Source of the DNA: an uncultured Armatimonadia bacterium | Lineage (GTDB): Bacteria; Armatimonadota; Zipacnadia; CAVVLO01 | Assembly: GCA_963749155.1 (NCBI GenBank) | Contig: CAVVLO010000001.1 | Coordinates: 512,001-576,000, forward strand | Direction: 5' to 3' | Length of the DNA stretch: 64,000 nt | Shown: in pieces, positions 9,589 through 38,445 of the stretch | How positions within the stretch are numbered: position 1 is the stretch's first letter | Layout of the letters: each line of letters opens with the position of its first letter | The notes under the pieces: model-generated | The model's input: only the letters and a program-made list of their open reading frames with translations | Databases searched by the model: none | What the model was told of the DNA's origin: nothing | Made by a program: the position numbers and the translations under genes

Positions 9589-12500
9589 TTGGCTGAGACC
9601 ACAAGCAAAGGCGCGGCGACGAATTTTGAGGCGCTGAGGGTCGGGCTGGCTTCGCCCGACATAATCAAGTCATGGTCGCGCGGCGAGGTCAAGAAGCCTG
9701 AAACCATCAACTACCGGACCTTCCGTCCGGAGCGCGATGGGTTGTTCTGCGAGAAGATATTTGGCCCAACGAAGGATTACGAGTGCTATTGCGGCAAGTA
9801 TAAGAAGCACAAGTTCCGTGGCATTATCTGCGACAAGTGCGGAGTGGAAGTTACCACCTCGCGGGTGCGGCGTCGGCGGATGGGCCATATCGAGCTTGCG
9901 GCGCCGGTGGCACATATCTGGTATCTGAAGGGCGTGCCCAGCCCGATTGCCTTGCTGCTGGACGTATCAGCGCGCGATCTGGAGAAGGTAGTCTACTTTG
10001 GCGCGAGTATTGTGACCCACCTGGACAGGGAAGCGCTCAATGCGATCTTCCCGCAGCTTAGCGCAGCGGTAGATGAGGAAGTCGAGAAGCTTAAAGGCCT
10101 GCTCGAGCAACGCGAGCAGAGGATGCTCGAAGAGATGGAGAACTTCCTCAGCGTGCGCGAAGACCTCGAGGGCGAGGACTTTGCGGAGCTGGCTAACGTT
10201 GTAGATGCCGAGGACGCAGGACTAATCGAAGCAGAAGTCGTCGTCGATGAGGAAGCAGAAGAGGAAGAAGAAGAAGAACTGGACCTGCATGAAGAGCCGG
10301 TGGCGGTCCTGCCGCGGAGCGTAGATGAAGAAGACGAAGATGAAGACTCTCCAATGCTCGGTGAGGAAGAGGGAGTCTTCGATACTTCGGTAGATGATTT
10401 CTTTGGGTCGCTGTCCCAGGATGACCTGCTGGATGACGACACCGTGCGCGAGGAAACCAGCAAGCGGCTGGATGATGAGCGGCGCGAAACCGAAGAAGAA
10501 ATTGACGGGCTGCGCGATGGGTTGGAACTGCTGGCCGAAATCCAGCTCAAGGATCTGCTGAACGAGGAAGACGTCCGCAAGCTGGATTCGGTGCTGGATG
10601 TCATCACCGAGCGGCTGGACAGAGATCCTGAGGCGTTGTTCTGCGCCAAGATGGGCGCGGAGGCGCTGCTCGATCTGCTTCACGAAGTGGATCTGGAGTC
10701 GCTGTCGCGCGAGCTTGACAAGGATGTTGACGAGACTTCCGGAGCCAAGCGGGTGCGGGCTATCAAGCGGTTGCAACTGGTGAACTCGCTACGCGATTCG
10801 CGCAACCGACCCGAATGGATGATTATGACGGTAATGCCTGTCATGCCGCCGGACCTGCGCCCGATGGTGCAGCTCGATGGTGGGCGGTTCGCAAGTTCGG
10901 ACCTGAACGATCTGTACAGGCGGATAATCAACCGCAACAACCGGCTGAAGCGCATTATCGAGATCCGGGCGCCCAGGTCGATTGTTAACCATGAGAAGCG
11001 GTTGCTGCAGGAAGCTGTAGATGCGCTGATAGACAACAGCCGCAGGTCGCGGCCAGTTACAGGGCCCAACAAGCGGGCGCTGAAGTCGCTTTCCGATATG
11101 CTGAAGGGCAAGGAAGGGCGCTTCCGCAAGAACCTGCTGGGCAAGCGCGTGGACTATTCGGGTCGGTCAGTTATCGTAGTCGGGCCGCACCTCAAGCTGC
11201 ATCAGTGCGGGCTGCCGAAGGATATGGCGCTGGAGCTTTTCAAGCCTTTCGTAATCAAGAAACTGGTAGAGCAGAATTTCACGACCAACATCAAGACGGC
11301 CAAGCGGATGATTGACCGGGGGCAGCCCGAGGTTTGGGACGCGCTCGAGGAGATCATTGAAGATCATCCCGTGTTGCTGAACCGCGCGCCTACGCTGCAC
11401 AGGCTGGGCATCCAGGCCTTCGAGCCGCAACTGGTCGAGGGCAAGGCTATCCAGGTCCACCCGCTGGTCTGCCATGGTTACAACGCAGACTTCGACGGCG
11501 ACCAGATGGCAGTGCACGTGCCGCTTGGGGCGGACGCGCAGGCCGAAGCGCGCATCCTGATGCAGGCTCGCGAGAATATGTTTGGCCCTGCAGGCGGCGC
11601 GCCAGAAGCTGCGCCTCTGTATGACATAGTGCTGGGCTGTTATTACATCACGCAGGAAAGCCAGCGGCAGAAGGACAAACCGAAACTTATGTCCAGCACG
11701 GAAGAGGCTGTACTTGCCTACGAGCTGGGCCATCTGGACGTACACGAATTCGTGCAGTGCCCGATTGAAGAGATCGAGATCAGCTTCAAAGACGGCCGGA
11801 AGAAATTTGCGCCTCGGCGCGAGGCTTTCTGGTCGATCCAGAGGGCTGGGACCGAACTTTTCGAGCAAGGGCTGCTGCGCGTTGGAGAAGAATACGAGAT
11901 AACGGTGGATCCGAAATCGGAGCCGACCGAATATGAGGCGCTGGGCATCTACGGCAAGGTTTCAGAGATGGCCGACGAGGTGCGCCTGGCGCTCACGACC
12001 GAAGTAAGCAGCGAGCTGGTTAAGGCCGACCCGGTGAAGCTCGTGGGCCAGACTCTGGCCGACGATTACAAGGACGCAGAGGGTGAGACGGTCTTTGTTT
12101 CAGGCACGGTGCTGGATGAAGAGACCGCGCCCAAGCTTGTCGAGCTGGTAGGCTCTCGCAAAAAAGTATCGGTCCGCCGGACGACCCAGGCTTATAACGA
12201 AGAGCAGCACCGCAGCGAAAGGTGCAGACTGAAGCTGCAGCGCACAATTGACGAGTTGTTCCGCAAGGAGCTGCTGCCGGAGAAGGGCAAGGCGAATATC
12301 AAGCTGGTAACCCAGCCCCAGGTCACGACAACTGGCCGGGTGCTGTTCAACCGGCTGCTGCCACTGTGCCTCAGGTTCAAAGACAAGCCGGCAGACAAGA
12401 AGCTGCTCTCGGACCTGACAAAAGAATGCCACAGCATCTTCGGAGTACCTCGCACTGCCGCGATGCTGGACGACATAAAGGACGCGGGGCTAAAGTTCGC

Positions 12501-14862
12501 GACGACCGCGGGGCTATCGATCTCGATGGCGGATATGTCGATCGCTTCCGAGCGCGACGAGATCATCGAGCGCACGCAGAAGGAAGTTGACAAGATCAAC
12601 CGCGACTATCGCCGCAGAATCATCAGCGATGGTGAGCGTCAACTGCGCGTGCTGAACCTGTGGCTCAAGGCGCGTAACCAGGTCGCAGACGACATTATGC
12701 AAAAGGTCAGCAAGTTCAATCCGCTGTACCTGATGCTTTCATCCGGCGCCCGAGGCAACAAGAACCAGCTTACGCAGCTCGCCGGGATGCGCGGTCTGAT
12801 GTCCGACCCGCGCGGCAATTTCATTGAGGACTTGCCGGTAAAATCGAACTTCCACGAAGGGCTTGGACTGCTTGAGTACTTCGTGTCAACTCACGGAGCG
12901 CGCAAGGGTGTAGCCGACACGGCGCTTCGCACAGCGGACGCAGGTTACCTGACGCGGAAGCTCGTAGACGTTGCGCAGGATGTAATGGTGCGCGAGCATG
13001 ATTGCGGCACCGTAAATGGCTTCACCGTAGAGCCTATCTTCGAGGAAGATGTCCACTGCTCGCAGTGCGGGACCCTCGACCTGAAGCGGATCAGCAATGA
13101 GGAAGGGCATATCATATGCCAATCCTGCGGAGCTGACCTGGGCGAACACGACGACGACAAGATCGAAGAGCTGGAAGAGCGGCTGTTCGGTTGCGTGGCG
13201 GCAGAAGATATAGTTCATCCTGAAACAGGCGAAGTGCTTGTCGAGCGCAACAAGATCATCTGGGAAGATGACGTTAAGGTTGTCGTGGACTCGGGCCTGG
13301 TTCAGGTAAAAGTGCGTTCGCCACTTACCTGTGAAACTACTGCAGGGGTTTGCACCTTGTGTTACGGACTGGACCTTTCGAGGCGCCAGCTTGTGCGCGA
13401 GGGCGAAGCAGTTGGTATCGTAGCGGCCGAGTCCATCGGCGAGCCAGGCACGCAGCTCACACTGCGCACCTTCCATACTGGTGGCGTCGCAGAGCAGTAT
13501 ATTACTGGTGTAGCGGACGTCCGGGGCAGAGTGCAGCAGATTTTGCGGCAGATCCGAGAGGATATGGAAGAGACCTCGGCGGGTACCAACCGCGAACAGC
13601 GCAGCACCTATCAGCGGGTGGTAAAGGTACTGGAGAACCCAGTTGGCGGCCTGCTGCGAATCATCGAGCTGTTCGAAGCGCGCAAGCCGAAGGGCCAGGC
13701 TATCATCTGCGACCTGGATGGTTTTATCGAGGACATCGTGCCGGCCGGCGCTTATCGTACAGTAACGCTGCGTTCGATACTCGAGGTTGCGCCAGAGCTT
13801 TCTGAACTGGCCAAGGGCGAGCGGCTCTGCGAGGATGCAGTGTCGCCGGTTAATGGCAAGACGATAATGAAGGTTGGCGACAAGCTGACCGATTCCAATA
13901 TCTTCTCGCTGATCACGGCAGGCGTGAAGAACGTAACCATCAGGAAGGAATATATCGTGCCGTTCCGAGGCAAACTGCAGGTAGTCAAGGGGGAGAAGGT
14001 CTCTGCGGGTACACGTATTACGCAAGGGCCACTGGAGCCCCGGATGCTGCTGAAGTTGCGGGGCCTGGACGGCGTGAGGGCTTATCTCGTGCGCGAAATC
14101 CAGGCGGTGTATCGCAGCTATAACATCCGCATCAATGACAAACATCTCGAATGCGTCATCAGGCAGATGCTGAAGAAGCGCAAGGTAGTCGAGCGGGGTG
14201 GCACACGCTTCCTGCCTGGCGAGCGACTGGACCAGTGGGTGCTCGAAGGCGAGAACCAGTCGATGCGCGAGCAGGGATTGCACGAAGCCACAGCCGAGTT
14301 CCAGTTGATGGGAATTACGGACGCCGCGCTGGCAAGTGACTCGTTCCTGTCGGCGGCTTCCTTCCAGAAGACGACGAAGGTGCTGACGGATGCGGCGCTT
14401 GCGGCAAGAAGGGATACACTGGAAGGGCTGAAGGAGAACGTCATAATCGGCCGGCTCATACCGGCTGGGACGGGCGGGAAGCAGTATAAGGGGATTAAGA
14501 CGCGCAGGGCGGACGGAGTCGAGGAAATACCGGCCGATCTGCTGCGCGAGCCGCTTGTCGAGACCAGCGAGCTTGAAGAGCTTGAGAAGCTAATGGTGGG
14601 CGCTACCGGCAGCGAGGAGATCGCTCGGGAAGTGCTTGGAGAAGGCTTCGAAGGTGATGACGGCGAAGAGCTGGATCTCGATGCGCTCGGACTTAAGGCT
14701 CTGGACGAAGACGAGCTGCCGGAAAATGAGGCAGATGACCTGCTTGGGGAGTTCCATGCAGTCGCTGAAGAGGAAGAAGAAGAGCTTGATTTGGAGCTTG
14801 GAGCAAGCGGCGAAACGGAAGAAGAAGAGCCAGAGCAGGAAGAAGGCCTAATCGAAGAGTAG
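9589..14862 (+). CDS. rpoC: RNA polymerase beta' subunit with large insertions and an acidic tail
   Basis: [10 protein letters not shown]-terminal Zn cysteines, [39 protein letters not shown]; 1757 aa. Confidence 0.99.
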
Positions 14863-14884
14863 AACGAATTACGAGTAAAAGGCG

Positions 14885-14922
14885 GGCGTCGTGGAGGAAA
14901 GGCCTTCACGGCGCCTTTTTTT
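14885..14922 (+). terminator. Intrinsic terminator of rpoBC
   Basis: 13-bp stem ggcgtcgtggagg/ccttcacggcgcc plus T7. Confidence 0.85.
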
Positions 14923-14934
14923 GCCTTTGCGGCA

Positions 14935-14963
14935 TTGACAGGCAAGCAGGGTTATGGTATCTT
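14935..14963 (+). promoter_or_regulatory. sigma70-type promoter of the ribosomal superoperon
   Basis: TTGACA-17 nt-TATCTT with extended -10 TG. Confidence 0.75.
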
Positions 14964-14968
14964 CACGA

Positions 14969-15130
14969 CCGCTGTTCTACGGCCTGAGTAGCTTGTGGAA
15001 CCGAGTGGAAGGAGACCCGTCATTGCAGTTGAGGGCCACTCAAACTGGTAGCAGTCCAGATCCCTGAGAAGGGGATAGGGCAGAATGCGCCGTTTGAGGC
15101 CCCCTGCGAAGGCGGGGGGTCTTTATTTTG
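14969..15130 (+). promoter_or_regulatory. Candidate attenuator leader upstream of rpsL
   Basis: Terminator hairpin 15096-15123 plus U-rich tail; competing helices 15033-15045/15092-15102 and 15003-15008/15036-15041. Confidence 0.6.
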
Positions 15131-15151
15131 AGTAGCACCGGAGGGTACTTG

Positions 15152-15568
15152 ATGCCAACTATTGGGCAGCTAGTTCGCAAGCCCAGGCGTACGCCGGCGA
15201 AGAAAATACGGAACAAGGCACTGTTGATTCGGTTCAACTCTTTGAAGAACCGGTCGGCGCTAACCGAGGGCGCACCGCAGAAGCGCGGAGTGTGCACGAA
15301 GGTGTGGGCAGACAAGCCCAAAAAGCCGAACTCGGCTTTGCGGAAGCTGGCCCGCGTGCGGCTGACGAACCGGGAAGAGGCAACCGCCTATATCCCCGGT
15401 ATCGGGCACAACCTGCAGGAGCACTCGGTAGTGCTTATCCGCGGCGGGCGCGTCAAGGACCTGAACTCGGTCAAATATCACATCGTGCGGGGCGTGCTGG
15501 ATGCGGCTGGGGTAAACAACCGCAAGCGCGGACGTTCGAAGTACGGCACCAAGAGACCCAAGGCATAA
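15152..15568 (+). CDS. rpsL: 30S ribosomal protein uS12
   Basis: [39 protein letters not shown]. Confidence 0.98.
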
Positions 15569-16165: not shown

Positions 16166-18274
16166 ATGAGCACCAATAGTCGGACAAAAACGAGTACCAG
16201 GCGAACTGACGAGATGTCACGGGAAGTAGAGCTAGGCAAGGTCAGAAATATCGGAATCGCCGCGCATATTGACGCGGGGAAGACGACAACGACTGAGCGT
16301 ATCCTCTTCTACACCGGCAAGGCACATCGTATCGGTGAGGTAGATGACGGCACCGCGACCATGGATTACATGGCGCAGGAGCAGGAACGCGGCATTACGA
16401 TTACCTCCGCGGCAACCACCACAGAGTGGCGTGATTGCCAGGTCAATATAATAGACACTCCAGGCCACGTAGATTTCACCCTCGAGGTCGAGCGCGCACT
16501 GCGCGTGCTGGACGGGATGGTTGCTGTCTTCTGCGCGGTCGGCGGAGTACAACCCCAGTCCGAGACAGTATGGCGGCAGGCCAACAAGTATCGCGTGCCA
16601 CGCATCGCCTACATCAACAAGATGGACCGGACAGGGGCAGATTTCCACGAAGTTTTGCACCAGATGCGCGACAGGCTGCAGGCTAACGCAGTAGCCATCC
16701 AGGTGCCAATCGGCGAGGAAGAAACCTTTCTTGGGATGATTGACCTCGTCGAAATGCGGGCGCATATCTACCTCGACGACCTTGGGACCAAGCGTAGCAA
16801 CGAGGAGATCCCTCAGGATATGCTTATGTTCGCGGAAGCATACCGCGAAGCGCTCGTTGACAAGCTCTCAGAAATTGACGAAGACATCCTGACCAAGTAT
16901 GTACAAGGCGAAGAGATCTCGGCGGACGACCTTAAATCAGCCATCAGGAAAGGCGTGCTGGCCAATGTGCTAGTGCCCGTACTGTGCGGTACCTCCCTGA
17001 AGAATAAAGGCGTCCAGCCAGTCCTCGATGCAATCGTAGATTATCTCCCCTCTCCTGAAGATGTGCTTCCAGTCACTGGACAGCATCCTGTGACGGGGGA
17101 AGAAGTCATACGCGAAGCTGACGATGAGGCGCCTTTCTCGGGGCTCATTTTCAAGCTGCTTACTGACGAATATGTCGGTCGCCTGGCTTTCGTACGCACT
17201 TATTCGGGCGTGCTGAAAAAGGGTTCGGCCGTTCACAATCCGCGCACTGGCAAGATGGAGCGCGTAGGCCGGTTGCTGCGGATGCATGCCAACCGGCGCG
17301 AGGATATCGAAGCAGCCTATACTGGCGACATTGTCGCGGTGCTGGGTTTCAACGAGATCGCAACGGGCGACACAGTCTGCGAGCGGAATCATCCTGTCTT
17401 GCTCGAGCAGATGAGCTTCCCCGAGCCGGTCATCAGTCAGGCCATCGAGCCAAAGACCAAGGCCGACCTGGACAAGCTGATGAACGCGCTCGAGAAACTG
17501 TCAGCCGAGGATCCGAGCTTCAGGTTCGGGGTAGATTCGGAGACAGGCCAGCTCGTGATGTCGGGCATGGGCGAGCTGCACCTTGAGATCATGCATGACC
17601 GCCTGGTGCGCGAGTATGCGGTGGCCGCAAGTGTCGGCAAGCCGCAGGTGGCGTATCGGGAGACCGTGTCACGGACCGCGACGGTGGAAGAGCGTTATGT
17701 TAAGCAGACCGGCGGGCGGGGTATGTTCGCCCAGGTCGAGCTGAAGCTGGAACCGAAGGCCGACGGTGGCTTCGAGTTCGTGAGCGCAATCACCGGTGGG
17801 GCCATCCCGAGGGAATATATCGCTCCGGTCGAGGCTGGCATTCGCGAAGGCCTGGCCAGCGGCGTGCTGGGCGGCTATCCAGTCATCAACGTGAAAGCGA
17901 CGCTGATGGACGGGCGCATCCACGAAGTGGACTCGAACGAGATGGCCTTCCGCATCTGCGCCACTATCGCGACAAAGGAAGCTTTGCGGAAAGCAGGTTC
18001 CATACTGCTAGAGCCGCTGATGAGTCTGGAGATTGTAGGGCCCGAGGAGTTCCTGGGCGAGGTAATCGCCGACTTGAACTCGAGACGGGCGGAAATCCAG
18101 GGTATGGAACAGGGCAGTGGTGGCCAGCGCATCGTAAAGGCCGTCGCTCCGCTGTCCGAGATGTTTGGATATGCGACCGACTTGCGGAGCCGTACGCAGG
18201 GCAGGGCAACGTTCACAATGACGCCCTCGCACTACGCTCCGGTGCCTCATAACCTACTTGACAAGCTGGTCTAG
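16166..18274 (+). CDS. fusA: Elongation factor G (str-operon copy; alternative start 16214)
   Basis: [34 protein letters not shown]. Confidence 0.98.
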
Positions 18275-19923: not shown

Positions 19924-20562
19924 ATGGCACAGCCCAAGTTGGCAACCAGATTCTTACTCGGCAAGAAAGTCGGGATGACGAGTATCTTCGCTGAAGACGG
20001 ACGCGTAGAAAACGTGACCGTAATCGAAGCTCCGGCTTCGGTGGTACTTCGGCGGAAGACCAAGGAATCAGATGGTTATTCGGCAGTACAGCTCGCCTTC
20101 GGTGAAGTAAAAGAGCAGCGGCTTACGAAGCCATTGCAGGGCGTATACAAGCACGCCGCAGTCGCGCCGAAGCGGACAATCCAGGAGTTCCTGGTACCCG
20201 AGGACGCAGAGTTCTCGATGGGGCAGGAGCTTACCGTGGAGCTGTTCAAGCCTGGCGATGTTATCGCGGTTACGAGCACGAGCAAGGGCAAAGGCTTCCA
20301 GGGCGTCATCAAGCGCTGGAACCACGCATGCGGCCCAATGACGCACGGCTCGAAGTCGAAAAGACGCGCAAAGTCGCAGGGCTCCACCGACGCCGGGCGC
20401 GTATTTCCCGGATTGCATCGCCCGGGTCATATGGGGCATGCCCAGGTTACCCAGGACGGACTGATGGTAGTAGCGGTGGATGCGGAGCTTAACGTGGTAA
20501 TGGTACGGGGTTCCGTGCCTGGGCCGAGCGGCAGTCTCGTGAAGCTGCGCGCGGCGAAGTAA
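19924..20562 (+). CDS. rplC: 50S ribosomal protein uL3
   Basis: GKKVGMT, DGYSAVQ, SKGKGFQGVIKRW, GSVPGP. Confidence 0.97.
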   Translation: MAQPKLATRFLLGKKVGMTSIFAEDGRVENVTVIEAPASVVLRRKTKESDGYSAVQLAFGEVKEQRLTKPLQGVYKHAAVAPKRTIQEFLVPEDAEFSMGQELTVELFKPGDVIAVTSTSKGKGFQGVIKRWNHACGPMTHGSKSKRRAKSQGSTDAGRVFPGLHRPGHMGHAQVTQDGLMVVAVDAELNVVMVRGSVPGPSGSLVKLRAAK

Positions 20563-20584
20563 GGATTCGCGGGAGGCAGTAGAA

Positions 20585-21217
20585 ATGCCAGAGCTAGCAG
20601 TTATGAATAAAGAGGGCAAAGAGACGAGCAAGGTGCAGGTCTCGGATGCGGTATTTGACGCACCGCTGCACCAGCAAGCCGTCTACCTGGCCGTAAAGAG
20701 AGTTCTCGCGAGTCAGCGGGCAGTGACTTCTTCGACGAAGACGCGGGCAGAGGTCAGAGGCGGCGGGCGCAAGCCTTTCCGTCAGAAGGGGACCGGCCGT
20801 GCTCGGCAGGGAAGCATCAGAGCTCCGCACTGGGTCGGCGGTGGCGTAACCTTTGGCCCGAAGCCTGACCGTAACTACGAGATCAAGCTGCCCAAGAAAG
20901 TTTATTGGCTGGCTATGCGTTCGGTGTTGTCCGAAAAACTGCGGCAGGGCGAACTGCTCGTGGTGGATGAGCTGAAGCTGGAAGCCATCAAGACCAGGGA
21001 GATCTCCACACTGCTGCAGCAGTTGCTCGGCGAGAAGGCAGGCAACGTGCTGGTAGTGCTCGAGGGGCGCGATGATATCGTCGAGAAATCGGCGCGCAAC
21101 CTTCCCTGGGCTCAGGTGCGCGCATCCTATGCCACCAGCGTCTATGACCTGCTGAAATATGACAATGTCGTGATGACCACTGCAGCGTTGCAGAAGCTCG
21201 AGGAGGCATGCAGCTAA
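20585..21217 (+). CDS. rplD: 50S ribosomal protein uL4
   Basis: [16 protein letters not shown]. Confidence 0.98.
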
Positions 21218-21516
21218 TGAAAGGCCTCGACTCCTATACAGTAATCGTGGCGCCAGTGTTGACTGAGAAGTCAGTAAATATGGCGCGGGAATCAAGCAAG
21301 TACACTTTTCGGGTAGCACCGACGGCGAACAAGATACAGATCGCCAAGGCCATCGAAGAAATCTTCAATGTGGACGTGACCCAGGTAAACACGCTGAAGG
21401 TACTTGGGAAAGAGCGCAAGCAGAACTTCAAAAGTCATGGCAAAACACCTGACTGGAAGAAGGCTATCATAACGCTCAAGCCCGGCCAGACGATTGACTT
21501 GTTCGAGGGCCTGTAA
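21217..21516 (+). CDS. rplW: 50S ribosomal protein uL23
   Basis: PVLTEKS, ANKIQI, WKKAII; TAATG overlap with rplD. Confidence 0.96.
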   Translation: MKGLDSYTVIVAPVLTEKSVNMARESSKYTFRVAPTANKIQIAKAIEEIFNVDVTQVNTLKVLGKERKQNFKSHGKTPDWKKAIITLKPGQTIDLFEGL

Positions 21517-21548
21517 TCGGGGTCCAGTCCCCATGAGGAGCCAAAGCA

Positions 21549-22378
21549 ATGGGCGTCAAAAAGTATAAGCCGACAACACCGTCGCGCAGGTACATGACGG
21601 GCTCGACCTTCGAAGAGATTACGAAGTCGAAGCCCGAGAAGAAACTGCTGAAGGCGCAGAAGAGCAATGCCGGACGCAACAACACCGGAAAGGTGACGGT
21701 GCGTCATCAGGGCGCAGGCGTGAAGCAGCGTTACCGGTTAGTAGACTTCAAACGCGACAAGGACGGCATGCCCGCCAAAGTTGCGGCAATCGAGTACGAT
21801 CCTAACCGGTCGGCGCGCATCGCCCTTCTGCATTATGAAGACGGAGAAAAGCGCTACATCATAGCGCCGGAAGCGCTTCGGGTTGGGATGAAGGTAGTGT
21901 CGGGCGCGGATGCCCCCATCGAGGTAGGCAACACGCTACCTCTGTCGGCTATCCCGCTGGGCCAGCTCGTTCACGCAATCGAGTTGCAGCCTGGACGGGG
22001 CGCGCAGATGGCGCGTTCGGCCGGGGCCGAGGCTCAGGTAGCCGCGAAGGAAGGCAAATATGCCACCCTTCGGCTTCCCTCTGGCGAAATGCGCATGGTG
22101 CTTCAGACCTGCAAGGCAACGCTGGGAAGAGTCGGCAACGCCGATCATGAGATTCTGGTAGACGGCAAGGCTGGACGGGCACGGTGGCGCGGTCGTCGGC
22201 CCGCAGTACGAGGCGTAACAATGAACCCAGTGGACCATCCACATGGCGGCGGCGAGGCCAAAGCGCCAATCGGCCGGCGGCTCCCGTGTCGCCAACTGGG
22301 GTGCCCGCTCTTGGATACAAGACGCGCAAGCCCAAGAAGGCCTCTGACAAGTTCATTATTCGCCGGCGCAAGAAGTAA
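21549..22378 (+). CDS. rplB: 50S ribosomal protein uL2, frameshift near 22277 (probable sequence error)
   Basis: [24 protein letters not shown]. The C-terminus [26 protein letters not shown] is in the adjacent frame. Confidence 0.96.
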
Positions 22379-22407
22379 GCGGGGCTGACCCTGCGGAGGT
22401 GTCATAA

Positions 22408-22695
22408 GTGGCTCGTTCGATGAAGAAAGGCCCGTTTGCCGATTTGCATCTGCTTGCGAAGGTACGCAAGCTGAATGAAACAGGCGGCAAGGACATTATC
22501 AAGACCTGGTCGCGCAGGAGCACCATCTTCCCCGAGATGGTCGGCCATACAATGGCAGTCCATGACGGGAAGAAGCACGTGCCGGTATTCGTGACCGAGA
22601 ATATGGTCGGGCACAAGCTTGGAGAATTCGTGCCTACACGGCATTTTCGGGGTCACGCTGGGAGCAAGTCCGAGCGCACCTCGAGAATGAAGTAG
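22408..22695 (+). CDS. rpsS: 30S ribosomal protein uS19
   Basis: [28 protein letters not shown]. Confidence 0.98.
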
Positions 22696-22726
22696 AGGCA
22701 GGCCACCTGCGAAGGGGTGTTTTACG

Positions 22727-23368
22727 TTGGCTGAAGTAAAAGCAACAGGAAAGTTTCTCAGAGGGTCGGTTTTCAAGGTGCGGCCTGTGCTGAGCGCTAT
22801 AAAAGGGATGCCTGTACGCGAGGCTAAAGCAAGCCTGGCCTATATGGGCGGCAAAGGCGCGGAGTTGGCACTGAATGTGCTGACCTCGGCAAGCGCCAAC
22901 GCGGTGGAGAACGCCGGGGCCGAGGAGTCTGCTCTGGTGGTAAAGAACGCCTTTGCAGATGAAGGCGTCACCATCAAGCGTATGCGTTTTCGCGCATATG
23001 GCAGGGCTGACCGCATCGCAAAGCGCACTTGTCACATCACGATAGTGGTGGATGAGGACGAGGAGCGCAAGGCGAAGCTGGAAGAGAAGGCCAAAGCCAA
23101 GGCGAAGGCCGCGAAGGCGACTCCCGCAAAGGGCGAGAAGAAGGCGTCTGAAAAGGCGCCCGAGGCAGAAGCCCCTGTGAAGAAAGGCCGCAAGACGAAG
23201 GCTGAAGCGCCTGTAGCCGAAGAGCCGCAGGTCGAGGCCCAGGAGCCTGAAGAGATTGTAACCGACATCGAAGAAGTCGGCGCCGACATCGAAGAGGTCG
23301 AAGAGGCCCCCGAGATGGAGCAGGCGGAAGGCGACGAGTCGGAGAGCGACAAGCAGGAAGGAGCCTAA
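22727..23368 (+). CDS. rplV: 50S ribosomal protein uL22 with about 100-aa C-terminal extension
   Basis: [24 protein letters not shown]; operon position. Confidence 0.95.
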
Positions 23369-23369
23369 G

Positions 23370-24167
23370 ATGGGTCAGAAGGTAAATCCGATCGGGTTCA
23401 GACTGGGGCAGACGCAATATTGGCGGGGACGCTGGTTTACCAGCCGCGACTATTGGAAGTCTTTGCTCGAGGATTACAGCGTGCGCAAGCACATCAGGAG
23501 CAAGCTGGCCGGGGCTGGACTCGCCGATATCATTATAGAACGGCATGGTGGAGACCGGCTACGCGTTACGATCATGAGTTCGCGTCCTGGGGTCATAATT
23601 GGCCGGCGCGGGCAGGGGATCGACGATATGCGGCTCGAGCTGGAGCGGCAGGTCAACAAGCGCGTGAACCTGACGGTAGAAGAGATCCGCGATCCTGACT
23701 TGAACGCTCAGCTTGTGGCGGATTCGATTGCCAGCAGCATCCAGCGTCGGGTTTCGTTCAGGCGCGCTATGCGCCAGGCTATCCAGCGGACGATGCGCCG
23801 CGGGGCAAAAGGCGTGCGCGTACGCTGCGCGGGCAGACTGGGCGGGGCTGAAATCGCCCGGGACGAGTCAGCCATGGAAGGCAGTGTGCCTCTCAGCACT
23901 CTGCGCGCTGATATCGATTATGCGGTGGGCGTCGCTCGCACGACCTACGGGCCCATCGGTGTAAAGGTTTGGATTTACAAGGGCGATGTGGCTTCGGAGA
24001 AAGAACAGCGCAAGCTGGCGAAGCTGCGCGCAGAAAAGGCACGTATTAAGGCCGAAGAGGCAGCGATCGCTGCGGCTGACGCAGAGGGAGAGGCAGAGGA
24101 GATGGCCGGGTTCGAGCAGGCCGTCGAGGAAGCCGAAGTGTTTGAGCAGACCGGCGATGAAGAGTAA
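23370..24167 (+). CDS. rpsC: 30S ribosomal protein uS3
   Basis: [38 protein letters not shown]. Confidence 0.98.
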
Positions 24168-24188
24168 TCGGCAGACAGGTGAACCAGT

Positions 24189-24611
24189 ATGCTAATGCCC
24201 AAAAGAACCAAATACAGGAAGATGCACCGGGGCAGTATCGCCGGTAACGCGCATCGCGGTACGAAGCTGTTGAACGGAGATATCGGACTGCGCGCAGTTG
24301 AACGCGGGATGATCACCTCGGCGCAGATCGAGTCGGCGCGTATAGCCATAACTCGCGCAGTAAAGCGTGGGGGAAAGATGTGGATCAATATCTTCCCGCA
24401 CAAGGTTATGACAGCGCGGGCGGCAGAGACTCGAATGGGCGGCGGCAAGGGCGCGCCGGACCATTGGGTAGCCGTGGTTAAGCCAGGACGCATTATGTTT
24501 GAGCTGGGTTCGGTTACGGACGAGCTCGGACATGAAGCTATGAGGCGCGCGGCGCACAAGCTCCCTATCAAGTGCAAGGTTGTGACTCGGGAGGATGAGG
24601 ACCGTGGCTAA
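24189..24611 (+). CDS. rplP: 50S ribosomal protein uL16
   Basis: [33 protein letters not shown]. Confidence 0.98.
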
Positions 24612-24810
24612 GAGCCAGGGTACGGCCGAGTTCGGCCAGATGACAGTAGAGGAGCTGCAGCGGGCGGCGAAAGAGAAGCGCGCCGACCTGTTCGAGCTGA
24701 GGCGCCAACTGGTGATGCAGCGGCTGGATAATAATCAGCGCATCAAGCAGACAAAGCGCGAACTGGCGCGGCTCCTGACAATCATTCGGCAGAAGGAAAC
24801 CGCCCAGTGA
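24595..24810 (+). CDS. rpmC: 50S ribosomal protein uL29
   Basis: [14 protein letters not shown]; position after rplP. Confidence 0.92.
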
Positions 24811-25085
24811 GCGGGCGAGGGAGAGTGGCTCCAGAGATGGCCGTCAAGACTACCAAAGAGGGCGTTGTCGTAAGCGACAAGATGGACAAGACCGTAGTGG
24901 TCGAAGTCGAGCGGCTTGTGGCGCACCCCAAGTATAAGAAGATCATGCGGCATACCAAGAAGTATCATGCGCATGACGAGAACAACGAATGTCGTATGGG
25001 CGATCGCGTGCGTCTCGAGTCGACTCGGCCGCTTTCGAAGACGAAGTGCTGGCGAGTAAGCGAGATCATCGACCGGAAGGCATAA
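24807..25085 (+). CDS. rpsQ: 30S ribosomal protein uS17
   Basis: [29 protein letters not shown]. Confidence 0.97.
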
Positions 25086-25118
25086 GAGTAGTAGCAGACC
25101 TGGCAAGGAGGCAACGCG

Positions 25119-27203
25119 TTGAAGGTTTATGAAACCGACAAGCTACGCAACCTGATCGTTGCAGGCCACCGGGGCGCAGGCAAGACCTCGCTGGTGGAAG
25201 GTATGCTCTTCGCGACGGGCGGCAGTACCCGCCTTGGACGCGTTGAAGAGGGCACTTCTACCTGTGATTACAGCCCCGAGGAGATAGACAGGAAGATAAG
25301 CATCCAGTCGGCACTGGCTTATGTCGAGACCGACGGATGCAAGGTCAACCTGATTGACACCCCTGGGTTTGGTGAATTGCTGGGCGAGGTTATTTCTACA
25401 ATAGCCGCCGCGGATGCGCTGCTTCTTGTTTTGGACGCTACAGGCGGCGTCGAAGTGATGACCGAGCAGGTCTGGAACCTGGCCCAGGCCAAGTCGGCAC
25501 CCAGTGTTGCTTTCGTTAACAAGCTGGACAAAGAGAACACCGATTTCGACGCATCGCTTGCGCAGTTGAAAGAGGCTTTTCAGGGCGTCACTTTCGCGCC
25601 TGCGGTCATCCCGATGGGCACTGCGGCTGACTTCAAAGGGGTCGTAGACGTACTGAGCGGGAAGGCTTATACCTTCGCGGGTGGCAAGGAGACCGAGGGG
25701 CCAGTGCCTGCCGAATACGCTGACGCGATGGCGACGGCAAAGGAAGCCCTGACGGAAGCGGCGGCCGAAGGCGACGACGACTTGCTCGAGAAGTACCTGG
25801 AAGAGGGCGAGCTTACCGAAGCCGAACTGCTTAAGGGCCTGGGAGCCGCAGTCGCGGCTGGGAAGGTCTGTCTGGTGTTCGGCGGCAGCGCTTACAACAA
25901 CAGTGGCACGCTGGCTCTGTTGAAGGGCCTGGTTAAGTGGATCCCTTCGCCTGACAAACTGCCGGCCATAAAGGCCACGAAGGTAAATGGCGATACCGAG
26001 GTTGAGCTGGCGCCCTCTGGCAGTTCGCCACTTACGGCCCTGGTTTTCAAGACTATCGTAGACCCGGTCGTCGGACGTGTCAGTTATCTGCGCGTCTTCA
26101 CGGGCGAGCTTTCGAGCGATGTAGCCCTGTATAACGCAAGCAAGAGCGGGTCAGAGCGACTCAGCCAGATTCTGGTACTGAAAGGCAAGAACCAGGATAC
26201 GGTCGTAAAGGCAGTGGCTGGCGATATTGTCGCAACCACCAAGCTCGATGATACCGAGACGGCTGATACACTTTGCGCGCAGGACCACCAGATGACGCTG
26301 CCCCGGATGGAATATCCGGAGCCTTTCGCGAGTCTGGCAATCAACTGCGCGAATCGCGCTGATGAAGAGAAAGTCAGCGATACGCTGAACAAGTTGCAGA
26401 AGGAAGATCCTTCTTTCCGCGCATATCGCAATCATGAGACCGAAGAGTTGCTGGTAGCAGGCCTCGGGAGCTTGCACCTGGACGTCATAGTTGATAAACT
26501 CAGGCGTCGCTCCAAGGTCGAGGTCAACACGACACCGCCGAAGGTCGCTTACCGCGAAACCATCCGCAAACGGGTAGAGGTCGAGGGGAAGCACAAGAAA
26601 CAAACCGGCGGACGTGGCCAGTTCGGGCACGTGTGGGTTCGGTTCGAGCCGCTGCCGCGCGGTGGCGGGTTCGAGTTCGAGGATGCAGTCGTGGGAGGCT
26701 CCGTGCCTCGTCAGTTCATTCCCGCAGTGGAGAAGGGCCTCGCAGAGGTCCTGCCTAAAGGCGTGCTTGCGGGATTCCCGACAGTGGATGTAAAGGCGAC
26801 TTTGTACGATGGCTCGAGCCATGCGGTTGACTCTTCGGAGTTGGCTTTCAAGCTGGCCGCTCATCTGGCTTTCAGGAAGGGCATAATGGAAGCCGATCCA
26901 GTGCTGCTTGAACCGATCAGTTATGTCGAGGTCACGGTGCCCGAGGAGTTTATGGGCGATGTGATGGGCGACTTTAACGGACGGCGTGGCCGGATCCTGG
27001 GAATGGAACCACAAGGCAACAAGCAGATCGTGAAGGCCATGGTGCCGCTGTCCGAACTTGGGATGTACAGCGCGGACCTCACCAGCAAGACGGGTGGCAA
27101 GGGTCACTTCATGATGAGGTTTGATCATTACGACGAAGTGCCGGCCCACCTGGTCCAGCACATCATCGAGCAGCACAAGAAGGATCAGGAAGAAGCCGAA
27201 TAA
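25119..27203 (+). CDS. fusA2: Second elongation factor G (EF-G II/EF-G2-like)
   Basis: GHRGAGKT, RKISI, DTPGF, NKLD, KQTGGRGQFGHV, HAVDSSELAF; TTG start with AAGGAGG RBS. Confidence 0.93.
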   Translation: MKVYETDKLRNLIVAGHRGAGKTSLVEGMLFATGGSTRLGRVEEGTSTCDYSPEEIDRKISIQSALAYVETDGCKVNLIDTPGFGELLGEVISTIAAADALLLVLDATGGVEVMTEQVWNLAQAKSAPSVAFVNKLDKENTDFDASLAQLKEAFQGVTFAPAVIPMGTAADFKGVVDVLSGKAYTFAGGKETEGPVPAEYADAMATAKEALTEAAAEGDDDLLEKYLEEGELTEAELLKGLGAAVAAGKVCLVFGGSAYNNSGTLALLKGLVKWIPSPDKLPAIKATKVNGDTEVELAPSGSSPLTALVFKTIVDPVVGRVSYLRVFTGELSSDVALYNASKSGSERLSQILVLKGKNQDTVVKAVAGDIVATTKLDDTETADTLCAQDHQMTLPRMEYPEPFASLAINCANRADEEKVSDTLNKLQKEDPSFRAYRNHETEELLVAGLGSLHLDVIVDKLRRRSKVEVNTTPPKVAYRETIRKRVEVEGKHKKQTGGRGQFGHVWVRFEPLPRGGGFEFEDAVVGGSVPRQFIPAVEKGLAEVLPKGVLAGFPTVDVKATLYDGSSHAVDSSELAFKLAAHLAFRKGIMEADPVLLEPISYVEVTVPEEFMGDVMGDFNGRRGRILGMEPQGNKQIVKAMVPLSELGMYSADLTSKTGGKGHFMMRFDHYDEVPAHLVQHIIEQHKKDQEEAE

Positions 27204-27239
27204 CGGCTTCGACTGGTTCGGTCGAGGAGAGGACTAGCA

Positions 27240-27608
27240 ATGATCGTGCCAATGACCAGGTTGAAGGTCGCAGATAACTCTGGGGCGCGTGAGATACTTT
27301 GCATCGGCGTGGTCGGGAAGGGTACAACGATCAAAGCTGGCGTTGGAGATATCATCTCGGCCGCGGTAAAAGTAGCGACGCCCAACGGGCAAGTGCAGGC
27401 CGGTACCGTGGTGCACGCCACGATAGTAAGGATGAAGGACCGGATCAGGCGTCCTGACGGGACTTATATCAGATTCGACGAAAACGCGGCGGTGTTGATC
27501 GACAAGGATGGTAATCCGCTGGGAACGCGCGTATTCGGGCCAGTAGCCCGCGAACTGCGCGAGCGGAACTATATGAAGATCATCTCGCTGGCGCCAGAGG
27601 TGCTGTAA
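27240..27608 (+). CDS. rplN: 50S ribosomal protein uL14
   Basis: [35 protein letters not shown]. Confidence 0.98.
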
Positions 27609-27609
27609 G

Positions 27610-27963
27610 GTGAAGGCTCCGAAGACCAAGATTGAGAAGCCGAAGCTGCGCAAGGGCGATACGATAGTCGTCATCGCCGGACGCGACAAGGGCGAGCGCG
27701 GCAAAGTATTGAAAGTCGACCAGGAAAGCAGTCGGGTACTGGTCGAGGGCGTGAATATGGTGAAGAAGCACCAGCGCGCCAGCGGGAAAATCCAGCAGGG
27801 CGGCATAATTGACAAGCCGGCGACCCTGGATATCTCTAACGTACAGCTTGTATGTCCCTCTTGTGGCAAGGCGACGCGGGTAACGCGCGCCAAGAACGAT
27901 GAGGGGCATTCAAATCGGGTATGCCGCAAGTGCAGCGAGACAGTGGACCAGGCCGAGGGTTAA
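27610..27963 (+). CDS. rplX: 50S ribosomal protein uL24
   Basis: KOW motif KGDTIVVIAGRDKG, VEGVN, SNVQL; CxxC..CxxC. Confidence 0.97.
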   Translation: MKAPKTKIEKPKLRKGDTIVVIAGRDKGERGKVLKVDQESSRVLVEGVNMVKKHQRASGKIQQGGIIDKPATLDISNVQLVCPSCGKATRVTRAKNDEGHSNRVCRKCSETVDQAEG

Positions 27964-27991
27964 GCCAGGCCTAGCAGCGAGGGTGTAAGAG

Positions 27992-28567
27992 ATGAGCGAA
28001 GCTAAGGAAAGCCTTTCCAGCAAGCCGCGATTGAAGGCCAAGTACGATGAAGTCATCGCAGCGAAGCTGACAGAGCAGTTCGGTTACCCGAACCTGATGG
28101 CTGTACCGCGTCTGACTAAAATCGTGGTAAGCATGGGCCTGAGTGAAGCGCGGGAGAATCCGGATGTTGTGGATCACGCCGCTACTCAGCTCGGTATCAT
28201 CACCGGCCAGAAGCCGGCAGTGCGCAAGGCAAAGAAGTCGGTAGCGGCTTTCCGCGTGCGCCAGGGGATGTCCATCGGGGCCGTAGTCACAATGCGCGGG
28301 CCACGTATGTGGGAGTTTTTCGATCGGTTGCTGACAGTAGCGCTACCACGTATCCGGGACTTCCGGGGTCTGGAAAGCAACTCTTTCGACGGGCGAGGCA
28401 ATTATTCGTTCGGACTGCGGGAGCAGACAATCTTCCCTGAAATTGATTTCGACCGGATCGATCAGGTCCGTGGGATGAATATCACCGTCGTAACGACGGC
28501 GAAGACCGATGAAGAAGCTCGGGCACTGTTGCTCGAGCTGGGGATGCCCCTGCAAAAGGGGAGCTAA
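27992..28567 (+). CDS. rplE: 50S ribosomal protein uL5
   Basis: [28 protein letters not shown]. Confidence 0.98.
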
Positions 28568-28585
28568 GGTCCGGAGGGAGTTCAA

Positions 28586-28771
28586 GTGGCGAAGAAGGCA
28601 CTGAAGATCAAGGCGGAAGCCAAGCCCAAGTTCAAGGCGCGCGGGTACAACCGATGCAAGCTGTGTGGAAGGCCGCATGGATATATGCGAGATTTCGGCC
28701 TTTGCCGTATCTGTTTCCGCGAAGGCGTCAACTGGGGACTCATCCCCGGCGTAACCAAGGCGAGCTGGTAA
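28586..28771 (+). CDS. rpsN: 30S ribosomal protein uS14, short zinc-binding type
   Basis: [25 protein letters not shown]. Confidence 0.97.
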
Positions 28772-28840
28772 GCAATGAGGACTGAAAACAAGGGCATCAC
28801 GCTTGGAGTATCCAAGGGTAAAGTGCGCAGTAGCAAGCCG

Positions 28841-29239
28841 ATGAAGGTCACTGACCCAATCGCTGATATGCTGACGCGGATCCGCAATGGCTTTCGGGCA
28901 GATCACGAGACGGTAGAGATGCCGAACTCGAAGCTGAAGGAATCCATCGCGAAAGTACTTCACGCCGAGGGTTACATCGACCGGTACCAGGTAGTGCCTG
29001 GCAAAGGTTCGGGTACCCTGCGGATCAAGTTGAAGTATATGGAGAACAGCGTAAGCGTAATCGACGGGATCGAGCGGGTCAGTAAAAGCGGCAAGCGTAT
29101 CTTCGCCGGTAAAGGCAAGATGCCGAAAGTACTGCAGGGGCTCGGTATTCTGATAGTAACCACCTCCTCTGGCGTGATGAGCGATCGAGAGGCCCGGGCA
29201 AAGGGCATCGGTGGCGAGATCCTCGCCAAGGTTTGGTAG
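28841..29239 (+). CDS. rpsH: 30S ribosomal protein uS8 (alternative start 28775)
   Basis: TDPIADMLTRIRN, GLGI, GIGGEIL. Confidence 0.97.
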   Translation: MKVTDPIADMLTRIRNGFRADHETVEMPNSKLKESIAKVLHAEGYIDRYQVVPGKGSGTLRIKLKYMENSVSVIDGIERVSKSGKRIFAGKGKMPKVLQGLGILIVTTSSGVMSDREARAKGIGGEILAKVW

Positions 29240-29250
29240 GAGGAGTAGAT

Positions 29251-29796
29251 ATGTCTCGTATAGGGCAAATGCCTATTGAGATACCAGGCGGTGTGCAAGT
29301 GACCATCGAGGGTCAGCATATCGCGGTAAAAGGGCCGAAAGGCCAGCTCGAGCGCGTAGTGCCCGAGCCGATCCAGGTCGTGCAGGAAGGTTCAGTGCTG
29401 ACGCTGGTGCGTCCGGACGATGAGCAGAACAGCAAGGCCCTGCACGGGCTGAGCCGGACCCTCGTTGCCAACCTGGTAGCAGGCGTGACGACTGGATTCC
29501 GCAAGTCGCTTGAACTGCACGGGAAGGAGTTCCGCGCTGAAGTGCGCGGTTCCAGCCTGGTGATGGATTTGGGATTCAGCCATGAGGTAGTTTACGAACC
29601 CGCAAGCAACTGCAGCTTCGAAGTGCAGGGGCAGAACCCAATACTGATCCACATAAACGGGATCGATCGGGAAGTCGTGGGCCAGACGGCAGCGACAATC
29701 CGGGCCAGAAAAAAGCCTGAGCCTTACAAGGGCAAAGGGCTGCGCTACCAGGGCGAAGTCGTCCGTCGCAAGGCGGGCAAGGCAGGCGCTCGGTAA
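29251..29796 (+). CDS. rplF: 50S ribosomal protein uL6
   Basis: MSRIG, VKGPKG, LGFSH, PEPYKGKG. Confidence 0.97.
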   Translation: MSRIGQMPIEIPGGVQVTIEGQHIAVKGPKGQLERVVPEPIQVVQEGSVLTLVRPDDEQNSKALHGLSRTLVANLVAGVTTGFRKSLELHGKEFRAEVRGSSLVMDLGFSHEVVYEPASNCSFEVQGQNPILIHINGIDREVVGQTAATIRARKKPEPYKGKGLRYQGEVVRRKAGKAGAR

Positions 29797-29828
29797 CAGG
29801 GGACAGAGTCGGTACAGGGGTGTGCCAG

Positions 29829-30197
29829 ATGGCAAGCATAAAGTCGCGAAATGAATTAAGGAAAATCCGTCAGGACCGCGGTCGGCGGAAGATCAAGGGA
29901 ACGGCCGAGCGGCCTCGGATTTGTGTATACAAGAGCCTGAAGGCGCTGTATGTACAGGTCATAGACGATGAAGCCGGGCACACGCTGATGGGGCTGACAA
30001 CTGGCGCAGGCGAGTTGAAGGACGGGCTGGAAAGCCTGACTAACCTGGCTGCCGCCGAGAAACTTGGCGAGGCAGTAGGGGCCAAACTCATCGAGCGCGG
30101 GATCACCGCAGTGGTGTTCGACCGCAGTGGCTACAAGTTCCATGGGGCCGTAAAGGCGATCGCCGATGCAGCGCGCAAAGCTGGCGTGCAGTTCTAA
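29829..30197 (+). CDS. rplR: 50S ribosomal protein uL18
   Basis: [24 protein letters not shown]. Confidence 0.97.
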
Positions 30198-30220
30198 TCG
30201 GCCAGAGCAGGAGGCAGACA

Positions 30221-30421
30221 ATGGCTGCTAAGGCAGGCAAACAAATAAAAGTCACGCTGGTACGCAGTGTCATTGGGCATACGAAATCCCAGAAAGACAC
30301 CGTACGCGCGCTTGGACTTGGAAAAATCAGTTCGAGTCGAGTGCTGCCGGACAGTCCGGCAGTGCGCGGGATGATCAACAAGGTACATCACCTTGTTGAG
30401 GTCTCGGAAGTCGGAAGCTAG
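30221..30421 (+). CDS. rpmD: 50S ribosomal protein uL30
   Basis: [27 protein letters not shown]. Confidence 0.96.
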
Positions 30422-30453
30422 CAAAGCTCCCAGGACCCGGAGGTGCTCCACAG

Positions 30454-30911
30454 GTGAAACTGCACGAGATAAAACCCGTAGAGGGAAGCATAAAGAAGAA
30501 GATGAGGGTCGGGCGCGGTCCCTCCAGCGGCAAGGGCAAGACGTCCGGTCGCGGTATGAAGGGTCAGCACGCCCACGGGCAGGTGCCGCAGGGATTTGAA
30601 GGCGGCCAGACTCCGATGTCGATGCGACTGCCGCTCAAGCGTGGCGTAAGCCGCGCGCAGCATAACCTGGGGATCTTCCGTAAGGACGTAGCTGTGGTTA
30701 ACATCAGCAAGCTGGCCCGGTTCGAGGCTGGCGCGACGGTTACACCCGAGGAACTCTACGCCCTGAATATGGCGCGTCGCACGAAAGACGGCGTCAAGAT
30801 ACTGGGGAACGGCGAACTTTCCATAGCGCTGAACGTGAAAGCGCAGGCGATCTCCAAGGTGGCCAAGGAGAAGATAGAGGCGGCGGGTGGCACCGTCGAG
30901 GTGATTAGCTG

Positions 30912-30912
<1 letters not shown>
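30454..30912 (+). CDS. rplO: 50S ribosomal protein uL15
   Basis: RVGRG, GKTSGRG, GFEGGQTP, KILGNG. Confidence 0.97.
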
Positions 30913-32902
<1,990 letters not shown>

Positions 32903-32928
32903 GACCGGGGCAGCTTGGGGATGAAGGT

Positions 32929-33687: not shown

Positions 33688-33707
33688 GTGAGGGCAGGCC
33701 GTAGTGG

Positions 33708-33926
33708 ATGCCCAAAGAAAAGCCGATCCGAGTCGAAGGGGTCATCACAGAGACGTTACCCAACGTCATGTACCGGGTGCGACTCGATAACGGCCACGAG
33801 TTGATCGCGCACGTGTCGGGCAAGATGAGGATGAGGTATATCCGCATCGTGAAAGGCGACCGGGTAAGTGTAGAGATGAGCCCTTACGACATAACAAAGG
33901 GACGCATCGTCTGGCTTCACAGGTAA
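33708..33926 (+). CDS. infA: Translation initiation factor IF-1
   Basis: ETLPN, SGKMR, GDRV, SPYD. Confidence 0.98.
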
Positions 33927-33968
33927 AAGGAAGCAACCGCCCGAGAAGGCGTTTAGGAGTGGCAAGCA

Positions 33969-34082
33969 ATGAAAGTACATTCGGCAGTAAAGGTACGCTG
34001 TGACAGGTGCAAGATTGTAAAGCGGCGGGGAGTAGTGCGGGTTATCTGCACCAATCCTCGGCACAAGCAGCGACAGGGATAG
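33969..34082 (+). CDS. rpmJ: 50S ribosomal protein bL36 (not in ORF track)
   Basis: Manual translation [37 protein letters not shown]. Confidence 0.97.
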
Positions 34083-34103
34083 GCACGTTGGAGGTGCACT
34101 GGT

Positions 34104-34487: not shown

Positions 34488-34516
34488 AGGCGCCAGGCAG
34501 GTATTAGGAGGACGAA

Positions 34517-34912: not shown

Positions 34913-34929
34913 GGTTGGAGGTGCGCTAG

Positions 34930-35557: not shown

Positions 35558-35592
35558 GTGAACTGCCCGAGCTTTCAGGAGAGTGGTAGAAG

Positions 35593-36567: not shown

Positions 36568-36597
36568 GCTGCGCTAGCGGCCTTGAGGTGATATGCA

Positions 36598-37221: not shown

Positions 37222-37228
37222 ACCCGTT

Positions 37229-38434: not shown

Positions 38435-38445
38435 GGAGAGAAAAC

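Follow-up and report, generated by a model that had tools for sequence, protein, structure and literature searches.

Terminator-type leaders in front of rpsL have been in print since 2005-2010 (PMC2965389, in its passages on rpsL). As recounted there, Merino and Yanofsky predicted attenuators upstream of rpsL in 24 species, and Naville and Gautheret (2010, Genome Biol 11:R97) characterised them as a “multiform rpsL-leader”; in the same passages (PMC2965389), these leaders have no common structure among lineages and no assigned ligand, with S7 as a guess. In E. coli, the S10 leader combines NusA-dependent attenuation mediated by uL4 with translational control (summarised in part of PMC3616713), and uS7 represses the str operon at an operator in the intercistronic region of rpsL and rpsG (outlined in parts of PMC10931766 and PMC3616713). 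The regulatory RNAs for uL4 and uS7 known from E. coli are described as narrowly distributed in the corresponding part of PMC3616713.

Here, we report on a 64,000-nt stretch of bacterial DNA (hereafter, the window), in which a structured leader precedes rpsL at the head of a long chain of genes for the translation machinery. Like the published rpsL-leader attenuators (as characterised in the rpsL passages of PMC2965389), this leader occupies the 5′ UTR of rpsL on the gene's own strand, with an intrinsic terminator near the start codon and a predicted alternative antiterminator, and the operon head is rpsL-rpsG-fusA-tuf. It differs from them in that it occurs in another lineage, has no sequence or structure match in Rfam at E <= 10, and stands before an operon that continues into the S10, spc and alpha genes.

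With Rfam 15 at the gathering threshold, the whole window yielded three tRNAs only (42011-42280) and nothing in the leader. Two rpsL-leader attenuators are included in Rfam, as rpsL_psuedo and rpsL_ricks. When the cut-off was relaxed to E <= 10 on 14860-15200, nine weak matches appeared, all far below gathering score and to unrelated sRNAs, with no ribosomal protein leader among them; in the 20 rpsL loci of relatives that were scanned, out of 29, no family attained its gathering score. A sequence-only reading of the window had recognised no known riboswitch or ribosomal protein leader here, which the scans bear out, and had called the attenuator new. The latter stands insofar as the form found in the window matches no described family; the kind, an rpsL-leader attenuator, is already published, such attenuators having been predicted before (PMC2965389, rpsL passages).

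The E. coli S10 leader, as outlined in part of PMC3616713, is of similar size and also places a terminator hairpin just before a long ribosomal protein operon. It is subject to feedback by an operon product (PMC3616713, same part), and the same feedback is proposed below for the window. However, it precedes rpsJ, whereas the leader in the window precedes rpsL; it also has a narrow distribution in Gammaproteobacteria, and no match to it occurs here. The gap between tuf and rpsJ in the window is 60 nt, and our pattern scan called no promoter in it. The E. coli uS7 operator controls the same genes by feedback from an operon product (PMC10931766 and PMC3616713, in the parts dealing with it), but it is translational, is situated in the rpsL-rpsG spacer and involves no terminator, whereas the element in the window lies upstream of rpsL and looks transcriptional.

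Anatomy and predicted folding of the rpsL leader

The features of the leader are listed in Table 1, together with the genes discussed below. The promoter that the sequence-only reading had placed upstream of rpsL was recovered by the pattern scan, with TG before the -10 element, and from its position the transcript is predicted to start at about 14969-14971. That reading had also described a leader of about 180 nt that ends in a 12-bp hairpin and TATTTT before the rpsL ribosome-binding site, and both its coordinates and its sequences proved correct. Near the leader, the sole other strong terminator on the + strand found by the pattern scan is that of rpoC, which shields the rpsL promoter against upstream transcription. 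The RpoC protein itself is unusually long (1757 aa) and has a strongly acidic tail. Since merely 28 nt lie between the hairpin and the rpsL ATG, where a promoter cannot fit, rpsL can be transcribed only via the terminator hairpin. The 16-codon ORF across the terminator is probably fortuitous.

Table 1. Predicted leader elements and genes of the window (positions are counted from its first nucleotide)
Feature	Position	Strand	Basis
rpoC	9589-14862	+	
rpoC intrinsic terminator: 14-bp stem (14884-14916) and run of T	14884-14923	+	Pattern scan
Promoter, sigma-70-type, TTGACA-17-TATCTT with TG extension	14935-14963	+	Pattern scan, 10/12 consensus match
5′-terminal hairpin: P1 (14969-14973 with 15004-15008) stacked on P2, loop 14984-14990	14969-15008	+	
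Antiterminator, 5′ strand	15010-15041	+	Minimum-energy pair list, shuffle control
Anti-antiterminator hairpin	15012-15041	+	Prefix folds to 15095 and terminator-enforced fold
Central domain of small hairpins, closed by CAAAC/GUUUG	15042-15095	+	Folding
16-codon ORF across the terminator	15085-15135	+	ORF survey of 69 leaders
Intrinsic terminator: 12-bp stem with 8 G-C pairs, GAAG loop, TATTTT tail	Hairpin 15096-15123, element to 15129	+	
rpsL ribosome-binding site, GGAGGG	15140-15145	+	Sequence read
rpsL (uS12, 138 aa), first gene of the chain	15152-15568	+	TIGR00981, 188.4 bits
Co-directional chain, rpsG to NlpC/P60 gene	15638-39712	+	Short gaps
fusA	16166-18274		
uL22 gene (213 aa)	22727-23368	+	
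Second EF-G-like gene (694 aa)	25119-27203	+	
adk, two overlapping ORFs	32248-32902	+	Pfam ADK positions 2-51 and 50-150
rpsD (uS4), called at 142 aa, and the gap before rpoA	34930-35593	+	
ORF overlapping the rpsD region	35312-35557		
uL17 gene (207 aa)	36598-37221	+	
Cluster of three tRNAs	42011-42280	+	

The leader folds with a predicted energy of -79.1 kcal/mol (z = -3.43), which none of 200 shuffled sequences attained. For 14969-15131, the fold of minimum energy (-74.7 kcal/mol) corresponds to the antiterminator, not the terminator: it consists of the 5′-terminal hairpin, the small hairpins in the centre and a long-range helix of 24 pairs between 15010-15041 and 15096-15123, which takes up both arms of the terminator and its loop. 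The central domain would bring the two strands of this helix together. Part of the same fold is the pairing of 15033-15045 with 15092-15102 that the sequence-only reading had put forward (11 pairs, -14.4 kcal/mol).

By itself, the terminator hairpin has an energy of -23.8 kcal/mol. When it is enforced, the antiterminator strand sits in the local anti-antiterminator hairpin and the fold reaches -69.0 kcal/mol, 5.7 kcal/mol worse than the antiterminator fold; at equilibrium, the terminator pairs have a probability below 1%. The 5′-terminal hairpin is present in the minimum-energy fold and in every prefix fold. In the prefix folds, the anti-antiterminator hairpin is the first to form, and it is displaced only once 15096-15108 emerges. 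The second competing pairing of the earlier reading, 15003-15008 with 15036-15041, is a perfect 6-bp complement, and enforcing it makes the terminator form (-68.1 kcal/mol).

As a control, we made 500 dinucleotide-preserving shuffles of the upstream leader (14969-15092). The margin of the antiterminator over the terminator, 5.7 kcal/mol in the native sequence, was 0.16 +/- 0.49 kcal/mol in the shuffles and reached 5.7 in none of the 500, and the terminator was part of the minimum-energy fold in 426 of them. The bare duplex energy is unexceptional (50 of the 500 shuffles were equal or better), and a loop-shuffle test of the antiterminator pairing gave p = 0.26 for this leader. Given the folding energies and the shuffle controls, the three-state logic holds as a prediction and does not simply follow from base composition. 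The attenuator logic of terminator, antiterminator and anti-antiterminator, as first proposed, is borne out by the folding and the shuffles, and its layout recurs before rpsL across the class (see below).

Natural variation was assessed in the contigs of four public runs with near-identical sequence, compared over 14800-15300. The 183-nt leader (14969-15151) has five changed positions and no indels in the four, and the absence of indels also speaks for a correct reading of the hairpin's homopolymer runs. Run X5 is unchanged in the leader and has one change in 15152-15300; X7 carries A15058T in the leader (covered to 15112) and no change downstream (covered from 15159). X10 has TGA>CAG at 14985-87 and X15, an RNA library, has T15120C (covered from 14987); these three and one changed leader positions compare with six and four changes, respectively, in the first 149 nt of rpsL (15152-15300). 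Four of the five changed leader bases are unpaired in the minimum-energy fold, TGA>CAG falling in the loop of the 5′-terminal hairpin and A15058T at an unpaired base. The fifth, T15120C, turns the G15099.U15120 pair of the terminator stem into G-C, and the hairpin goes from -23.8 to -26.5 kcal/mol. This variation is consistent with constraint on the leader but, with so few events, does not prove it. The X15 contig runs unbroken from 14987 through the terminator to about 1.3 kb past 15297, a weak hint at read-through transcripts that start near the predicted start; contigs carry no information on starts, ends or depth, and the library may contain DNA.

Recurrence of the layout before rpsL in the class

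The genome that contains the window is the sole member of its family, and its 40 nearest genomes are related to it at class level only. Among the matches listed in a search of genome contigs for closer relatives, S12 proteins of Bacillota, Chloroflexota and similar groups were found at 65-73% identity, and the best match of a metagenome scan had 57% identity over 58 aa. The class comprises 79 genomes, 75 of them with an rpsL match, and for each of the 74 relatives we inspected the 450-1500 nt that precede rpsL. A TTGAC-N17-20-TAnnnT promoter, followed 120-340 nt downstream by a C-run...G-run hairpin with a T-rich tail, was found in 69 of the 75 upstream regions (68 relatives and the window). 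Together with L019 and L023, which fall outside this rule by their variant hairpins and do have the promoter, 70 of the 74 relatives carry a promoter, a long leader and a C-run/G-run hairpin with T-tail before rpsL. In L136, the hairpin is present and no promoter was found by the pattern used, L124 is cut by the contig end, and in L155 and L018 the promoter-hairpin arrangement is absent.

The relatives' leaders are about 200-310 nt long: in all 28 relatives listed, a TTGAC-type promoter lies 200-310 nt before the hairpin. The distance from the hairpin to rpsL varies across the class leaders from 23 to 194 nt, and is 23-28 nt in the window, L002, L006 and L009. In an alignment of the terminator region of the 68 relatives (A3), the 3′ arm of the hairpin, GAGGGG, is nearly invariant; the 5′ arms did not align. 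In many relatives, the same alignment shows a conserved GCGUC(U/C) or GUGUC(U) motif after the U-tract.

In 44 of the 69 leaders, a regular expression found a 5′ domain of the form P1, AAGCG, P2, G[CU]GAACUG, P1′. Covariation was scored on an unfitted MAFFT alignment (A2) of 41 leaders, that is, the 44 minus L118, L119 and L132, which are off the motif spacing. Standard pairs occupy 73.3% of the cells of the 16 pairs, against 54.2% after shuffling, and the covariation score is 0.548, against 0.214 (0/500 shuffles as high in either case); when the partners were slid by 1-3 columns, the score dropped to 0.11-0.21. Fifteen of the 16 pairs have changed on both sides, compared with 14.0 in the shuffles, 113 of 500 of which were as high. 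RNAalifold found just four pairs in a MAFFT alignment of 19 full leaders; the relatives' structures were taken from subgroup folds and helices read by hand.

Searched with R1, the covariance model of this domain, 37 of the 79 class genomes contain exactly one match apiece (E <= 0.001), always just upstream of rpsL; among 151 genomes sampled from the phylum, R1 matched six class members and one marginal outsider. The domain, restricted to the class (loci L010-L030 and L111-L153) and without a match in Rfam, looks like an undescribed candidate ribosomal protein leader in its own right. R1 has no match in the window leader, its best matches elsewhere in the window being at E 0.15 or worse, and none in the whole genome of the window at E <= 1. 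A profile of the 68 relatives' leaders, built on a poor MAFFT alignment, likewise found no match at 14969-15130 with nhmmer (E <= 10).

A second conserved element of the relatives, the box AAGGGGGC or a variant of it, is located 46-84 nt ahead of the hairpin, with a sequence complementary to the hairpin's 5′ arm, GCCCCUC. The segment 5′ of this box matches the terminator loop of the lineage's own leader in families f4, f7a, f10, f13, f14, f15 and some of f11: GGUCAUCAGU with CUGAUGCC in f7a and f14, CGCAC with GGUGCG in f10, CAGCAAC with GUUGCUG in f13, and GCGUGCGAG with CUCGUGCGU in f15. The window has the same architecture, 15016-15028 matching 15104-15116.

When each family's own upstream segment was set against the terminators of the other families, the cognate duplex was better on average in 10 of 13 families, f11 being clearly reversed and f9 and f13 near zero; when the upstream segments of other families were set against its own terminator, the cognate one was better in 11 of 13, with f2 reversed. 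Shuffling of the loop only gave p < 0.05 in 10 of 69 leaders. Overall, the formal tests of antiterminator pairing across the class are weak and only moderately supportive. The terminator is the equilibrium state in 56 of the 69 leaders, unlike in the window, which is among the 13 where the antiterminator dominates, so the switch logic may differ between lineages.

The leader of the window thus agrees with the class-wide leader in its place, its promoter type, its C-run/G-run terminator stem with T-tail and an antiterminator strand extending into the loop of the terminator (like that of f7a and f14). It is, by contrast, the shortest (about 155 nt from transcript start to hairpin end), and it has neither the covarying P1/AAG-P2-AACUG/P1′ domain nor the AAGGGGGC box. 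As both the profile HMM and R1 miss it, we regard it as having the place, promoter type, terminator style and switch logic of the class, with detectable homology and the candidate sensor domain absent.

Proposed attenuation mechanism and its alternatives

The reading that we prefer, with belief and doubt about evenly balanced, is that the leader attenuates transcription of the rpsL-led cluster: by default it would be read through, and a factor, most probably one of the cluster's ribosomal proteins, would switch it to termination. RNA polymerase setting out from about 14970 would meet the strong intrinsic terminator (15096-15129) before it reaches rpsL. The competing helix (15010-15041 with 15096-15123) is predicted to be more stable and to swallow the terminator whole, which is why read-through is the predicted default. 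A trans-acting factor could stabilise the early hairpin (15012-15041) or the pairing of 15003-15008 with 15036-15041; the antiterminator strand would then be withheld, the terminator would form and transcription of the cluster would fall. The factor is most probably a ribosomal protein made from the cluster itself, acting by negative feedback. That it is a ribosomal protein is our leading guess, by analogy with uL4 at E. coli's S10 leader and uS7 at its str operon.

One candidate for the bound site was uS7-site mimicry, i.e., a likeness to the 16S h28/h29/h43 junction. The junctions of the relatives resemble stretches of the genome's own 16S rRNA around positions 920 and 1364, and in this region crosslinks of uS7, at U1240 and C1378, are documented (in the relevant part of PMC3548175). 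When the genome's own rrn operon was scanned with position weights, this by-eye likeness did not stand out: the 5′ motif scored best at 16S position 528, with the h28/h29 site third, and the 1364 site was not in the top six for the 3′ motif. The rRNA-mimic motifs are, moreover, absent from the window leader, and we retain the mimicry as a lead only.

A wider proposal, possible but in our view rather doubtful, is that this leader and those of the class form an unclassified riboregulator that gates some 37 translation genes (ribosomal proteins, EF-G, EF-Tu, SecY and RpoA) from a single point. What it would sense is a ribosomal component in free form, for instance uS7, uL4, uS10 or the 30S subunit. 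By our own comparison, the purine-rich boxes competing for the terminator's C-run look like ribosome-binding sites, which makes direct sensing of free small subunits conceivable.

As against the attenuator reading, the antiterminator could always win and the hairpin never usefully terminate, the structures serving the stability or processing of the mRNA; the 5′-terminal hairpin might shield the transcript, with the long helix as a possible site of the RNase III type. We judge such an unregulated leader unlikely. It would agree with an equilibrium fold that is the antiterminator, with terminator pairs below 1%, with a hairpin that begins at the predicted first base of the transcript, with the RNA-library contig that crosses the terminator, and with Rfam, HMM and R1 scans that recognised no sensor domain. 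However, 71 of 74 relatives, like the window, retain a full intrinsic terminator and its U-tract, which is hard to explain if it were unused; the T15120C variant strengthens the terminator stem, and a third, mutually exclusive hairpin restores the terminator.

That a small molecule (e.g., a nucleotide alarmone or a metal ion) shifts the balance between terminator and antiterminator seems quite improbable to us, since no known riboswitch class matches in Rfam, the window lacks the conserved domain of the relatives, and the ribosomal protein operon leaders examined to date bind proteins (according to the parts of PMC10931766 and PMC3616713 on these leaders). Yet the expression platform is of the usual riboswitch form, and the relatives' leaders do have a covarying domain with an invariant internal loop. 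We give very little credence to the idea that the unit from promoter to terminator is a small RNA (about 155 nt here and 250 nt in the relatives), with rpsL mRNA arising by read-through: this would suit the strong promoter and strong terminator, the terminator as equilibrium state in most leaders (56/69) and the single copy of R1 per genome (37/79), but the unit always lies directly upstream of rpsL on the same strand, and gaps of 23-28 nt between hairpin and rpsL (window, L002, L006 and L009) make rpsL depend on read-through.

Least probable of all is translation-coupled attenuation, in which ribosomes on the 16-codon ORF would melt the hairpin and read-through would report translation capacity: this ORF covers the whole terminator, stops 4 nt before the rpsL ribosome-binding site and has a purine-rich stretch upstream of its ATG, but an ATG ORF spans the hairpin in just 32 of 69 leaders, with peptide and spacing unconserved, and short ORFs are expected by chance in G+C-rich DNA. 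A leader peptide was rejected as well, as 37 of the 69 leaders have no such ORF and the peptides encoded by the other 32 are unrelated.

Little is known about the ways in which the synthesis of ribosomal proteins is balanced in bacteria outside the model groups. The class-wide leader, with its strong covariation and its occurrence once per genome, offers a defined RNA for ligand fishing, and the stripped-down leader of the window a minimal expression platform with which to compare it.

The gene cluster downstream of the leader

The chain that follows rpsL runs in the order rpsG, fusA, tuf, rpsJ-rpsQ, an EF-G paralogue, rplN-rplO (without rpsE), secY, adk, map, infA, rpsM, rpsK, rpsD, rpoA, rplQ, truA, rplM, rpsI and the NlpC/P60 gene. 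A simple scan found no strong + strand terminator in 20001-40000, and from the arrangement of the genes one unit of about 24 kb is plausible. The control over about 24 kb proposed by the sequence-only reading fits the co-directional run of genes, in which no strong + strand terminator was found between 15152 and about 39712; internal promoters are possible, e.g., in the 235-nt gap before rpoA. Here, the str, S10, spc and alpha genes all follow one promoter and one conditional terminator in a co-directional chain, so one RNA switch could set the whole translation capacity of the cell.

Several genes of the cluster are unusual. In addition to fusA, a second EF-G-like gene, with all five EF-G domains, lies between rpsQ (S17) and rplN (L14). 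The gene for uS5, rpsE, is absent between rplR and rpmD, which are separated by 24 nt (30197-30221). It is found on another contig (L186, G000 C5:317594-318055), where it has a TTGACA-18-TATAGT promoter of its own and a short leader that contains no terminator, and therefore does not share the attenuator. The split of adk into two overlapping ORFs is a frameshift, either real or an assembly error. In rpsD, the S4 domain is cut in the gene as called, which is followed by the 235-nt gap before rpoA; another frameshift may account for the shortening, and the ORF that overlaps this region has no Pfam match. The uL22 and uL17 proteins are about twice the usual length, and as the family domain covers only part of each, they carry lineage-specific extensions. 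The three tRNAs are clustered just beyond the ribosomal cluster.
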